Shown here: positions 6,764 through 60,080 of the stretch, one piece after another
Layout: every line of letters starts with the position of its first letter
Position numbering within the stretch: position 1 is the first letter of the stretch
Source: Escherichia coli
Lineage (GTDB): Bacteria; Pseudomonadota; Gammaproteobacteria; Enterobacterales; Enterobacteriaceae
Reading direction: 5' to 3' (one strand)
NCBI RefSeq assembly: GCF_001677475.2
Contig: NZ_CP015229.1
Length of the DNA stretch: 64,000 nt
Program-made: the position numbers and the translations under genes
The notes under the pieces: model-generated
Told to the model about the DNA's origin: nothing
Databases searched by the model: none
Seen by the model: the letters and a program-made list of their open reading frames with translations, nothing else

Positions 6764-6795
6764 CTAAAAGGGCATCATTTGATGCCCTTTTTGCA
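6764..6795 (+). terminator. tufB intrinsic terminator
   Basis: Hairpin AAAAGGGCAUCAUUUGAUGCCCUUUUUG. Confidence 0.8.
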
Positions 6796-6964
6796 CGCTT
6801 TCGTACCAGAACCTGGCTCATCAGTGATTTTCTTTGTCATAATCATTGCTGAGACAGGCTCTGTTGAGGGCGTATAATCCGAAAAGCTAATACGCGTTTC
6901 GATTTGGTTTGCCTCGCGATCGCGGGGTGAAAATGTTTGTAGAAAACTTCTGACAGGTTGGTTT

Positions 6965-56006: not shown

Positions 56007-57638
56007 GTGTTAACGCTGCTTCACCTGCTTTCTGCCGTCGCCCTGCTGGTCTGGGGGACTCATATTGTTCGAACCGGCGTAATGCGCGTCTTCGGCGCGC
56101 GTTTGCGTACTGTCCTTAGCCGGAGCGTCGAAAAAAAGCCGCTCGCCTTTTGCGCGGGGATCGGCGTTACCGCACTGGTGCAGAGCAGTAATGCCACCAC
56201 CATGCTGGTGACCTCGTTCGTCGCTCAGGATCTGGTAGCCCTCGCACCGGCTCTGGTGATTGTGCTGGGTGCAGATGTCGGGACGGCGCTAATGGCGCGT
56301 ATTCTCACCTTCGACTTATCCTGGCTGTCACCATTACTTATTTTTATCGGCGTGATTTTTTTCCTCGGACGCAAACAGTCACGCGCCGGGCAACTGGGCC
56401 GCGTCGGTATTGGTCTTGGGCTGATTTTACTGGCGCTGGAGTTGATTGTGCAGGCCGTAACGCCGATCACTCAGGCAAACGGCGTTCAGGTGATCTTTGC
56501 CTCGCTGACTGGCGACATTTTGCTGGATGCGCTGATTGGTGCGATGTTCGCCATTATCAGCTACTCCAGCCTTGCTGCTGTACTGCTGACCGCGACTTTG
56601 ACCGCCGCAGGCATTATCTCTTTCCCAGTGGCGCTTTGTCTGGTGATTGGGGCAAACCTCGGTTCCGGCCTGCTGGCGATGCTCAACAACAGTGCCGCCA
56701 ATGCCGCAGCCCGCCGTGTCGCGCTGGGTAGTCTGCTGTTTAAGCTGGTGGGTAGCCTGATTATCCTGCCGTTTGTCCATTTGCTGGCAGAGACAATGGG
56801 GAAGTTGTCATTGCCAAAAGCGGAACTGGTGATCTATTTCCACGTCTTCTACAACCTTGTACGTTGCCTGGTCATGCTGCCATTTGTTGACCCGATGGCA
56901 CGGTTTTGCAAAACGATTATTCGCGATGAACCGGAACTGGATACCCAGCTACGGCCTAAACATCTGGATGTCAGCGCGCTGGATACGCCCACGCTTGCTC
57001 TGGCGAACGCCGCGCGCGAAACCCTGCGCATTGGCGACGCCATGGAACAGATGATGGAAGGGTTGAATAAAGTGATGCACGGCGAGCCACGGCAGGAGAA
57101 AGAGCTGCGTAAGCTGGCAGATGATATCAACGTTCTCTATACCGCCATTAAGCTGTATCTGGCGCGGATGCCAAAAGAAGAGCTGGCGGAGGAAGAGTCG
57201 CGCCGCTGGGCGGAGATCATCGAAATGTCGCTCAACCTTGAACAGGCCTCCGATATCGTCGAGCGCATGGGGAGTGAAATTGCCGACAAATCACTGGCAG
57301 CACGGCGGGCATTTTCGCTTGATGGGTTGAAGGAACTGGATGCGCTCTATGAGCAATTGCTCAGTAATTTAAAGCTGGCAATGTCGGTGTTCTTCTCTGG
57401 CGATGTCACCAGCGCTCGTCGTTTGCGCCGCAGCAAGCATCGCTTTCGCATTCTTAATCGCCGCTATTCCCACGCCCACGTCGATCGCCTGCATCAGCAA
57501 AACGTGCAAAGCATTGAAACCAGTTCGCTACATTTAGGCTTACTGGGAGATATGCAGCGTCTGAACTCGCTGTTTTGTTCGGTGGCTTACAGTGTGCTGG
57601 AACAGCCGGATGAAGATGAAGGACGGGACGAGTATTAA
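56007..57638 (+). CDS. yjbB: Na+/phosphate-symporter-family membrane protein (PhoU-like C-terminal domain)
   Basis: 543-aa ORF starting GTG, multiple TM segments. Confidence 0.92.
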   Translation: MLTLLHLLSAVALLVWGTHIVRTGVMRVFGARLRTVLSRSVEKKPLAFCAGIGVTALVQSSNATTMLVTSFVAQDLVALAPALVIVLGADVGTALMARILTFDLSWLSPLLIFIGVIFFLGRKQSRAGQLGRVGIGLGLILLALELIVQAVTPITQANGVQVIFASLTGDILLDALIGAMFAIISYSSLAAVLLTATLTAAGIISFPVALCLVIGANLGSGLLAMLNNSAANAAARRVALGSLLFKLVGSLIILPFVHLLAETMGKLSLPKAELVIYFHVFYNLVRCLVMLPFVDPMARFCKTIIRDEPELDTQLRPKHLDVSALDTPTLALANAARETLRIGDAMEQMMEGLNKVMHGEPRQEKELRKLADDINVLYTAIKLYLARMPKEELAEEESRRWAEIIEMSLNLEQASDIVERMGSEIADKSLAARRAFSLDGLKELDALYEQLLSNLKLAMSVFFSGDVTSARRLRRSKHRFRILNRRYSHAHVDRLHQQNVQSIETSSLHLGLLGDMQRLNSLFCSVAYSVLEQPDEDEGRDEY

Positions 57639-57652
57639 TATTGTGAATCCTG

Positions 57653-57723
57653 TAGGCCTGATAAGACGCGTCAAGCGTCGCATCAGGCACTATGAACAAG
57701 ATGCCGGATCATGCATCCGGCAA
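57653..57723. repeat. REP elements between convergent yjbB and pepE
   Basis: GTAGGCCTGATAAGACGCGTCAAGCGTCGCATCAGGC and GATGCCGGATCATGCATCCGGCA match REP consensus families. Confidence 0.75.
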
Positions 57724-57728
57724 TTCAC

Positions 57729-58418
57729 TTAAAAACGGTGACCTGCTTCCAGCGGCACCGCTTCTTCACCAGCTTTAAACACATAAGTGGTGTTCGGGCC
57801 ACCCAGCGTAGCGTGACCTTTACTCACCGTGATCCAGTTACCTTCCGGTAGACCAATAATTGTGAGTTCTGGCGCGACGACCAGCAGTTCGCGAATACGC
57901 TGCTCACGGGTTTCACCTTTATGGCCTTCCGGCAGCGCGTTGGTGAAGTGCGGGTTGATTTGCAGCGGGAACAGATTCAGCGCATCGAAACCTTGCGGAT
58001 CGACAATCGGCATATCGTTGGTGGTACGAATGGTTGGGCAAGCAAGGTTAGCGCCTGCGCTCCAGCCAACATACAGCGCGCCACGTTTAACCACGTCAGT
58101 AATTGGTGCCAGCAGCCCGCGCTCGCGGCACTGTTTCAGCAACTGGAAAGTATTACCGCCGCCGACAATCACGATCTCAGCATTTTCAATCGCGGCAACG
58201 GGATCGACAACGCTATGAATACCGGTGACAGAAACACCCAGCGGAGCGAGAACCGCAGCCGTTTTCGCTGTGTAATCATCCCAGGTCTGCGTTACGCCCG
58301 CGAAAGGAATAAATACCGCTGAACGGCGACCCTGCAACTGTTCAGCAATTAGCGGCAGTGCATGTTCCAGCCAGGCTTTACCCGGCAGCGTCGAGTTACT
58401 CAATAAAAGCAGTTCCAT
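57729..58418 (-). CDS. pepE: Dipeptidase E (alpha-aspartyl dipeptidase)
   Basis: 229-aa [31 protein letters not shown]... Confidence 0.95.
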
Positions 58419-58543
58419 TACTTCTCCGGTTAGTAAGAAATCACGGAAGGAATGCTACCACTGCGAATTTAACCACTTACTGACATGGCTCACGATGTCA
58501 CGTATTGCACCGGGCGCTGAGACTGATGACAAACACAGCATTG

Positions 58544-58641
58544 CCTGATGCGCTACGCTTACCAGGCCTACCAGATAACTGCAATATATTGAATTTTCGA
58601 GATTATGTATGCCGAATAAGGCTTCATTCCGCATCCGGCAT
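58544..58641. repeat. BIME-like pair of inverted REP elements in the pepE-sorE spacer
   Basis: GCCTGATGCGCTACGCTTACCAGGCCTAC and ATGCCGAATAAGGCTTCATTCCGCATCCGGCAT in opposite orientation. Confidence 0.7.
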
Positions 58642-58799
58642 AAACAATGTGCACTTTGCCACCAATTTGAGCGCCCCTTAAGGCGCTGATGTTTTTTATC
58701 CTTCTCGTGCAAATTGTGCTGCTTCAGCAATCAGCCGCACATCAGGTCGCGAAGTTGCCGCGGCGACCAGCCAGCGACATGCAGAGTTAAGTAGCGCGA

Positions 58800-60029
58800 T
58801 TAATCATGGGAAATTGCCTCTGCATGGGCGAGCAGGTATTGCTCCGCCTCACCGGACCAGATCCCCTGATGACGCGCCAGAATCGCCGCCAGTGCTTGAT
58901 CCTGAATCTGCGTGAGTGACGTCAGCGGCAGGTATTTCCCGGTATACACCAGCTTTTTGCCGCCGCCGACGGCAGGCAATTCAAGCGTGGTTTCGCCCGC
59001 GGCATTCAGCCCAAGAATATGTGTTACCACTTTTGCGGCCTGCACTTTTTTCTCTTCAATCAATTTGACCGCTGCGCGCATGTCGTCGGTATTGCCGCCT
59101 GACGTGCCCACGTAGTGGGTAAATGCATAATGCACATCGTAGAAATTAATTGGCGCGCTGAAATGTTTATCCTGCGGTCCGGCGAAGAAATTCAGGCAAC
59201 CATCCGTCGCCAGCAAGGAAGAGGCGAGAGTCACCAGTCCTTCATTAGGCACAAAGACGAAAATATCATCGAAGCCGTGACCGCCACTCAGCGCCATTAA
59301 CGTATCAAATGCTGCATCGGTGGCATTGAGATAATGAATCAGTGTTTGCGGTTCTGATGGATAGTGCTTCCGCGCATAACTCAATTTATCGTTGTCGGTA
59401 TCGGTAATGACGAGCAGCGACGGGTTAACGGGTCCATGTAGCGCATAATCAATCGCCAACAGTCCCATTGGTCCGGTGCCGCCGAGGATCAGCGTGCGCC
59501 CTTGCGGGCGAATCCCCATCGTGTGGTTATAACTACCTTCCTGAAGATGATAGTTGGCGTTGAACGCGCCAATCACGCAGGAAAGCGGTTCAACCAGCGA
59601 GCCTTCAAAATAGGTTTCGCCGTCGTATGCCAGCAGGCAATCTTGTTCCATGACCTCGTTGGGAATAACTACATGCGTGGCTTCGCCGCCTACCCACGGG
59701 AAGGAGTAGCCGGGGCAGTCCGGGCGGTCGGGGAGTTGCAGGTTGGCCTGAATCACATAACGCTGACCCGGCTGGAATTTGTGCTGCCACTTTTTACCCA
59801 CGGCCAGAATATCGCCGCAAAACTCGTGGCCGATGATGATTGGGTTGGTCGCCACATCGTCGGGTACTTTTTTATGGTTTTCACCCAGATTGGCCTCTTT
59901 CCAGGAAGAGAGGCACAGGCTGTCAGTGACCACCGTCGCGAGGATTTCATCCTCCTGCATTTCAGGAAGATCAAAGGTTTCCAGGCGTAAATCACGTTTA
60001 CCATAAAGACGCAGAGCTGTTGTTTTCAT
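58800..60029 (-). CDS. sorE: L-sorbose-1-phosphate reductase (Zn-dependent dehydrogenase family)
   Basis: ORF track 413 aa; start set to ATG with GAGGTGG 6 nt upstream giving 409 aa (MKTTALRLYGKRDLRLETF...); last gene of a PTS operon. Confidence 0.85.
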   Translation of the reverse strand: MKTTALRLYGKRDLRLETFDLPEMQEDEILATVVTDSLCLSSWKEANLGENHKKVPDDVATNPIIIGHEFCGDILAVGKKWQHKFQPGQRYVIQANLQLPDRPDCPGYSFPWVGGEATHVVIPNEVMEQDCLLAYDGETYFEGSLVEPLSCVIGAFNANYHLQEGSYNHTMGIRPQGRTLILGGTGPMGLLAIDYALHGPVNPSLLVITDTDNDKLSYARKHYPSEPQTLIHYLNATDAAFDTLMALSGGHGFDDIFVFVPNEGLVTLASSLLATDGCLNFFAGPQDKHFSAPINFYDVHYAFTHYVGTSGGNTDDMRAAVKLIEEKKVQAAKVVTHILGLNAAGETTLELPAVGGGKKLVYTGKYLPLTSLTQIQDQALAAILARHQGIWSGEAEQYLLAHAEAISHD

Positions 60030-60080
60030 AAACCACCTCATGTTGAGCTATGGCCCCGGCAGTCGTGCCGGGGCGAAGAA

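Follow-up and report, generated by a model that had tools for sequence, protein, structure and literature searches.

The hairpin between pepE and sorE of Escherichia coli is probably the 3' stem-loop of an ancestral sor-sdhL unit whose last gene has decayed

The 381-bp interval between pepE and sorE in this Escherichia coli genome, in which both flanking genes lie on the minus strand, raises the question of what its hairpin belongs to: the structure looks like a terminator only for a plus-strand transcript, although no plus-strand gene precedes it. The window, that is, the whole 64,000-nt stretch of contig NZ_CP015229.1 that was analysed, had been given a sequence-only reading in which three explanations were offered: a small divergent or antisense RNA from the pepE promoter region, a remnant of the ancestral junction, or an insulator between the island and the core. 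We find, from comparison of related loci, that the hairpin at 58670-58687 is probably the ancestral 3' stem-loop of the minus-strand sor-sdhL unit, orphaned by the decay of sdhL. The features of the interval and its flanks, with the basis for each, are as follows.

57729-58418, minus strand: pepE (dipeptidase E) coding sequence; open reading frame, annotated as pepE in matching genomes
58419-58511, no strand assigned: pepE upstream region common to sor-positive and sor-negative E. coli; alignments
58512-58518, no strand assigned: GGGCGCT, the hairpin arm in a third copy; matches AGCGCCC at 58670-58676 in inverted orientation
58513-58658, no strand assigned: BIME-containing unit (REP pair and flanks); blastn against Pseudocitrobacter faecalis
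58543-58571, no strand assigned: Y-type REP palindrome GCCTGATGCGCTACGCTTACCAGGCCTAC; sequence, multi-copy family, weak naRNA4 match
58572-58606, no strand assigned: L-like motif with TGCAATATATTGAATTT between the REPs; sequence, weak Rfam ES036 match
58607-58641, no strand assigned: degenerate Z-type REP palindrome; sequence
58670-58687, minus strand: conserved stem-loop with arms 58670-58675 and 58682-58687; fold, and conservation 3' of the sdhL stop
58688-58700, plus strand: GATGTTTTTTATC, T-rich tail; complement of the sdhL last codon, TAA stop and A-rich spacer
58696-58749, minus strand: 3' remnant of sdhL, encoding ...RPDVRLIAEAAQFAREG and then a stop; translation, 90% identity to E67 L005:6001-6070
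58750-58807, minus strand: 5' remnant of sdhL; 58750-58900 matches L005:6772-6922
58800-60041, minus strand: sorE (L-sorbose 1-phosphate reductase), with which the intact part of the operon now ends; open reading frame and annotation

Comparison of the interval with 5,426 complete E. coli genomes distinguished three alleles. The whole 381-bp stretch is carried by 2,681 of these genomes. In sor-negative genomes, such as K-12, the first 81-90 nt are followed by an unrelated 86-bp filler and then by rluF, and in the E67-type allele (177 genomes, E67 included) an intact sdhL gene is present. The first 81-90 nt are matched in 5,424 of the 5,426 genomes; the K-12 spacer aligns to interval positions 1-90, and the E67 spacer aligns to that of K-12 over 1-96. 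The comparison with sor-negative strains, which the sequence-only reading had proposed as a means of defining the insertion boundary, places the end of the common pepE-side sequence between 58508 and 58514, where homology stops in the alignment. The K-12-type filler (L002 3091-3176) has no homology anywhere in the sor-positive locus. On the other side of pepE, which is convergent with yjbB, a REP pair lies between the two genes at 57655-57722; this pair has a sub-threshold Rfam naRNA4 match (47.1 bits versus a gathering score of 59.5) and includes a minus-strand terminator-like hairpin (57722-57702) directly 3' of pepE. In the Sakai genome (O157:H7; L001 4664-6382), the Mu-like prophage Sp18 interrupts sorM and thus breaks the sor operon, but the pepE-sorE stretch is still conserved.

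The interval had been described as a spacer between two genes, but part of it is the remnant of a third: positions 58696-58807 are a 112-bp minus-strand stub of sdhL, a shikimate-dehydrogenase-like gene. The right half of the spacer, used as a query, gave a 70-nt match inside an E67 gene annotated as shikimate 5-dehydrogenase. The intact E67 gene (L005 6017-6829) encodes 270 amino acids and lies between sorE and pepE on the sor strand, with its ATG overlapping the sorE stop codon; its product matches Haemophilus influenzae SdhL HI0607 (PDB 1NPY) with E = 2.5e-111 and contains Pfam shikimate-dehydrogenase domains. Both ends of this gene are collinear with the window, in which 58680-58749 and 58750-58900 match L005:6001-6070 and 6772-6922, respectively, at 90-91% identity, and the sdhL ATG (58805-58807) overlaps the sorE stop codon (58800-58802; ATGATTAA). 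The window copy carries two disabling lesions, a nonsense TAA at sdhL codon 7 (58787-58789) and, at the junction between 58749 and 58750, a clean 701-bp out-of-frame gap relative to intact sdhL. By homology to both ends and by these lesions, 58696-58807 is an sdhL pseudogene. The deletion junction appears to be identical in the 2,681 genomes, each of which matches the stretch as one piece, and in every genome inspected no feature is annotated beneath the match to the sdhL remnant; an unannotated pseudogene is thus flagged in about half of E. coli genomes. The gene is also intact in other Escherichia and in Pseudocitrobacter, Citrobacter, Klebsiella, Raoultella and Kluyvera.

The E67 allele has a history of its own. 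Its homology to the window starts at 58680, such that the BIME and one arm of the hairpin are lost, and it has no comparable hairpin there. Derivation of this allele from the window type by a single deletion was considered and rejected; a clear breakpoint is seen on the right (58680), whereas the left does not reduce to a single event. The E67/ST648 allele is 90-91% identical to window positions 58680-58900, which take in both ends of sdhL and ~100 nt at the 3' end of sorE, and because this identity lies below the 94-99% found among window-type alleles of the spacer, the comparison suggests that the E67/ST648 allele was imported by recombination from a divergent lineage. In Escherichia sp. MOD1-EC7003 (L009) and E. 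albertii (L012), the best sorE tblastn segment covers only ~250 of 413 residues; sorE may be disrupted in these two loci despite an intact sdhL. With respect to function, SdhL also matches PDB 7COK at 2e-16, and some enzymes of the shikimate-dehydrogenase family are 5-ketofructose reductases (PMC7954740). We speculate that SdhL may act on a sorbose-related ketose rather than on shikimate.

The hairpin itself is as the sequence-only reading described it, with plus-strand letters AGCGCC, CCTTAA and GGCGCT (58670-58687), but the tail that follows (GATGTTTTTTATC) extends through 58700, 2 nt beyond the end given there (58698). On the minus strand the hairpin reads AGCGCC-UUAAGG-GGCGCU, and the stem begins 9 nt past the sdhL stop codon. 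In a terminator scan, which reported 6 sites in all in 1.4 kb versus 1.5 ± 1.1 in shuffles, only the plus strand of the hairpin scored as terminator-like (6 pairs, 5 GC, a 6-nt loop and the tail GATGTTTTTT, with 7 T in 8 nt). Thus, under simple criteria, the earlier statement that terminator geometry exists only for a plus-strand transcript is correct in this genome: the plus strand has a GC-rich stem-loop with a U-tract within a few nucleotides, while on the E. coli minus strand CAAAUUGGUGG takes the place of a U-tract 3' of the stem (CAAATTGGTGG in the window, where no 8-nt stretch has more than 3 T). The statement that no plus-strand gene is annotated upstream is likewise borne out, and extends to promoter-like sites. 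The predicted fold has an energy of -11.7 kcal/mol on the plus strand, where it can be extended to an imperfect 10-pair stem abutting the U-run, and of -13.0 kcal/mol on the minus strand; a 4-nt GAUG sits between the plus-strand stem and the U-run. With z near -2.5 and 3 of 200 shuffles folding equally well, the fold statistics alone are modestly better than chance. We judge the hairpin to be real because its arms are conserved across seven genera, and not because of these statistics.

Among the findings that the sequence-only reading had named as undoing its case was membership of the hairpin in a REP family present at many other loci, and this was not what we found. No second copy of the hairpin occurs in the window, even at up to 3 mismatches, and 58642-58799, which includes it, occurs at a median of 1 place per E. 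coli genome; membership of a REP or other repeat family was therefore rejected. The hairpin is 100% identical in 2,110 of 2,657 genomes.

The T-rich tail that gives the plus strand its terminator-like appearance can be read as the end of the gene on the other strand. On the minus strand, 58688-58700 reads GAT AAAAAA CATC, with the sdhL TAA stop at 58696-58698; that is, the strand reads GGA TAA AAAACATC and then enters the stem. The plus-strand geometry arises because the T-run complements the last codon GGA, the stop TAA and the A-rich spacer, which is TAAAAAACATC here and TAAGAAACATC in other Escherichia. The E67 allele resembles other Escherichia in having TAAGAAACATC, which is TTTCTT when read on the plus strand and still leaves 6 T in 8. 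Among the relatives compared, an uninterrupted T-run on the opposite strand is limited to the E. coli pseudogene allele. The form in this window, T6, is found in 42 genomes, and a form one base longer in 1,833 + 235 genomes; this longer form is T7 in Sakai and ST131, where its identity was seen, and the T7 count is derived from the one-base-longer matches. In the pseudogene-bearing lineage of E. coli, one G-to-A substitution (TAAGAAAC to TAAAAAAC) gave T6, and T7 arose by a slippage insertion; the plus-strand terminator look is then a by-product of the end of the minus-strand gene.

To which gene the hairpin belongs is best seen from its distribution. A scan with one genome per species yielded 80 loci with sdhL relatives, and 36 Enterobacteriaceae loci were examined for the stem. 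The stem, (G)AGCGCC-loop-GGCGCT(C), lies 2-17 nt past the sdhL stop codon in 23 of the 36 loci, from Escherichia, Pseudocitrobacter, Citrobacter, Kluyvera, Klebsiella and Raoultella; its arms are at least 90% conserved, and its loop is free in sequence and 4 to 7 nt long. The stem is kept whatever comes downstream (BIME, pepE, ccdAB or other genes), and is also found in two Kluyvera loci that have sdhL and no sorE within the 3 kb examined upstream. Five taxa (L014, L016, L018, L020 and L027) have U-rich tails in the sor sense, and three taxa that lack this stem (L034, L037 and L041) have different sense-strand hairpins with U-rich tails at the same position. Across 22 taxa, base-pair counts favour neither strand: 82.3% of cells are paired on the sense strand versus 81.8% on the antisense strand, with a nearly invariant core in which the six pairs include 5 unpaired cells in the sense orientation and 7 in the antisense; one pair in the outer stem shows an AU/UA swap. 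In three non-coli Escherichia the stem is degraded (-3.4 to -7.1 kcal/mol), and for this reason the constraint on it may be weak within Escherichia.

On the minus strand, then, a stable stem-loop lies just past the stop codon of the last gene and is conserved with that gene. Because the stem follows the sdhL stop across genera, whatever lies downstream, the comparison essentially establishes that it was inherited as the 3' stem-loop of the minus-strand sor-sdhL unit. Of the three earlier suggestions, a remnant of the ancestral junction comes nearest, although what the hairpin descends from is the end of sdhL and not a pepE-rluF junction.

The two inverted REP elements that had been placed at 58544-58641 are present, at 58543-58641. 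They comprise a Y-REP and an inverted Z-REP with a ~35-bp L motif between them, and the region 58500-58669 is multi-copy, occurring at 23 to at least 50 places per E. coli genome among the matches listed (the count is a lower bound in 4,100 records), as expected of a BIME-1/RIP element. An Rfam search of the interval gave only sub-threshold, REP-derived matches, to naRNA4 and ES036 (18.7 bits, below the gathering score), and the orthologous Z-type REPs are canonical in other Escherichia. BIME-1, or RIP (RIB), elements consist of a Y-REP, an L motif with an IHF site and a Z1-REP, and are found at operon 3' ends; REPs in this position stabilise the upstream mRNA, and BIMEs attenuate transcription. 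The L-like motif at 58572-58606 resembles, by eye, an IHF-binding core of the WATCAANNNNTTR type (ATTCAATATATTG on the minus strand), which we take to be a putative site. In every non-coli Escherichia with intact sdhL that was examined, the hairpin is followed by the BIME unit, and therefore the ancestral Escherichia state was gene, hairpin and BIME. The window type arose from this state through the 701-bp deletion, and the E67 type lost the BIME and one arm of the hairpin. In the E. albertii type strain (L012 3577-4100), a ~150-bp unit that starts inside the hairpin loop is present in at least 3 tandem copies.

With 701 bp lost from sdhL and a nonsense codon gained, here and in about half of E. 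coli, the hairpin now looks orphaned beside the 112-bp stub that was left. We propose that the sorbose-induced minus-strand mRNA ends in the hairpin together with the adjoining BIME-1-like REP unit on its 3' side; the hairpin could terminate transcription weakly or block 3' exonucleases, with further stability and attenuation coming from the REP stems, and read-through into pepE would be limited. Because the E. coli sense strand lacks a U-tract, any minus-strand role of the hairpin would be at best weak, or would draw on Rho or the REPs for help. The feature is real and ordinary: an operon-end hairpin, a BIME and a pseudogene stub, all of known kinds. The apparent oddity is explained by decay of the last gene at what is otherwise a normal operon end, and is of little importance in itself. 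The locus does provide a natural allele series (hairpin and BIME, neither, and T6 versus T7) that suits tests of read-through from a sugar-induced operon into pepE.

Some relatives have a second gene unit at this position. Five full loci, from Klebsiella, Citrobacter, Kluyvera and Pseudocitrobacter, and one unclassified Enterobacteriaceae MAG carry a convergent ccdA-ccdB pair in the space between sdhL and pepE, with Pfam matches at 6e-24 for CcdB and 2e-24 for CcdA.

L030 3842-4452 and L051 3840-4447, also L019, L025, L038 and L069; convergent to sdhL: ccdAB cassette; Pfam

In these loci the ccdB stop codon abuts the hairpin, such that the stem sits between two converging units, where a bidirectional terminator would be expected. 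The plus-strand geometry of the window's hairpin might be the relic of a bidirectional terminator shared in the past with a convergent ccdAB cassette between sdhL and pepE, a cassette that Escherichia would have lost and in whose place the BIME now lies. That such a cassette can decay here is evident from the ccdA fragments in L008, L013 and L023, and from P. faecalis L007 and the MAG L008, which have ccdA-like sequence only, with a BIME beside the hairpin (the L007 sequence was recognised by eye and has no tblastn match). However, no ccdAB remnant was detectable in the window or in any Escherichia locus compared, the antisense tails in the ccdAB-bearing taxa are modestly T-rich (3-5 of 8), and the T-run has been strengthened, not decayed, in Escherichia; moreover, the cassette is equally explicable as a later insertion in the other genera. 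We consider this relic unlikely, and note that it is compatible with descent of the hairpin from the sor-sdhL unit.

If any plus-strand polymerases arrive, the hairpin could stop them, and in the genera with ccdAB it is positioned to do so; plus-strand termination in this genome is physically plausible, with no known plus-strand gene or promoter-like site for it to serve. In its strongest form, the hairpin would be a working plus-strand intrinsic terminator that stops transcription from the pepE/BIME side before it runs antisense into the sor operon, acting as an insulator and possibly defining a short non-coding RNA; the transcription would come from a divergent start in the CRP region, from pervasive initiation or from yjbB read-through. 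The plus strand is the sole strand to pass the terminator criteria (6-bp stem, 5 GC pairs, 7 T in 8 nt), its fold of -11.7 kcal/mol can extend to the imperfect 10-pair stem that abuts the U-run, and the hairpin is invariant in 2,110 of the 2,657 genomes. In addition, the tail has moved from TTTCTT through T6 to T7 in E. coli, with the longer form dominant (1,833 + 235 versus 42), and this T-richer tail could reflect selection for a plus-strand role. Nevertheless, the GAUG separates the 6-bp stem from the U-run, a T6/T7 polymorphism is expected from neutral homopolymer slippage, and the stem was inherited from a minus-strand context.

Searches for a plus-strand transcript or its source also argue against a working plus-strand terminator. 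A scan of both strands of 57600-59000 found no promoter-like sites, an Rfam search of the stretch found no RNA family above threshold, and there is no conserved plus-strand ORF, since the plus-strand ORFs run through the REPs or shift frame with T6/T7. A 33-amino-acid plus-strand ORF (58689-58790) was rejected as a small protein, because it runs over the sdhL remnant and is thrown into another frame between strains by the T6/T7 difference. An orphan rluF promoter firing into the spacer was likewise rejected: the rluF-proximal 35 bp, with a TATATT box, stay beside rluF at the far sor junction, and the pepE side has no promoter-like site. We found no transcript 3'-end data for the pepE-sorE locus in the literature, sorbose papers included, and the portion of the supplementary text available from a study of intergenic small genes in O157 Sakai has no entry for the locus. 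Given the lack of a promoter-like site, an Rfam family or an entry in that portion of the Sakai supplement, the small divergent or antisense RNA from the pepE promoter region finds no support, and a working plus-strand terminator seems rather improbable. It is similarly doubtful, and if anything slightly more so, that the hairpin was co-opted as a plus-strand terminator after sdhL decayed, with the tail sharpened from TTTCTT through T6 to T7, and that it now shields the sor operon from antisense transcription from the pepE/BIME region or defines a short non-coding RNA ending near 58698.

The inverted repeat might act as DNA and not through RNA structure, either as a protein-binding palindrome or as an AGCGCCC/GGGCGCT recombination substrate that inverts the BIME unit. 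The arms are nearly invariant and show little covariation, and the unit at 58513-58658 is inverted relative to P. faecalis L007 3834-3979 (blastn, 79.6% over 147 nt, E = 8e-33), with the arm copies GGGCGCT (58512-58518) and AGCGCCC (58670-58676) bracketing exactly the inverted segment. When 211 nt of the minus strand are folded, the two distal copies pair with each other around the BIME. However, a loop that varies from 4 to 7 nt and is free in sequence is unusual for a spaced DNA operator, single changes that are G-U compatible and the AU-to-UA swap in the outer stem preserve pairing, and a site just past a stop codon is where RNA 3' structures are typically found; the inversion, having happened once in history, is no evidence of function. 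A role as DNA is thus very unlikely. A chance hairpin with neither history nor function, for which one could cite the modest single-sequence statistics (z = -2.5, 3 of 200 shuffles), is refuted for practical purposes by the presence of the same arms in the same place beside the same gene in seven genera.

In relatives the operon is sorCDFBAME-sdhL, with the start codon of sdhL overlapping the end of sorE; sorM, sorE and sdhL are contiguous in 29 Enterobacteriaceae loci, and sdhL adjoins pepE in the same orientation in at least 26. The conservation of the sor-sdhL-pepE order in at least 26 loci argues that the sor locus beside pepE is ancestral and that the K-12 arrangement is a loss. The sor-negative K-12 type thus looks like the loss of an ancestral sor-sdhL locus rather than an empty insertion site, which agrees with the reported presence of the sor operon in more than 86% of genomes, phylogroups A and B1 excepted (PMC12817954). 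Since the conserved order makes the sor locus look ancestral, the premise of an insulator between an island and the core is weak.

The hairpin and its surroundings share much with known systems, but differ from each in some respect. Like intrinsic terminators, the hairpin has a GC-rich stem of 6-9 bp and a short loop a few nucleotides past the last stop codon of an operon, flanked 5' by A-rich and, in some taxa, 3' by U-rich sequence; unlike them, in the window it has its U-tract on the gene-less strand and none on the sense strand, and termination is predicted only. Like bidirectional terminators, it is flanked in Klebsiella, Citrobacter and Pseudocitrobacter by two genes, sdhL and ccdB, that converge on it. 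The REP unit resembles BIME-1/RIP elements in its order of Y-REP, L-like motif and Z-REP, in its multiple copies and in its location at an operon 3' end, but its Z-REP is degenerate, its IHF site is one by resemblance only, and the hairpin falls outside the family.

The sdhL gene itself has been reported in E. coli as an ST648-specific gene inserted "upstream" of the sor operon, in a 2025 paper in which sorbose induced sdhL with an L2FC of 6.0, versus 5.7 for the sor genes, and the sdhL protein with 6.8 (PMC12817954). The ST648 gene is the same as the intact E67-type allele, of which the window keeps only the 112-bp remnant. In contrast to the upstream, ST-specific placement in that paper, the comparison here puts sdhL downstream of sorE, with overlapping start and stop codons, and finds it ancestral; this arrangement indicates that sdhL is the translationally coupled, ancestral eighth gene of the sor operon, and not an ST648-specific insertion.
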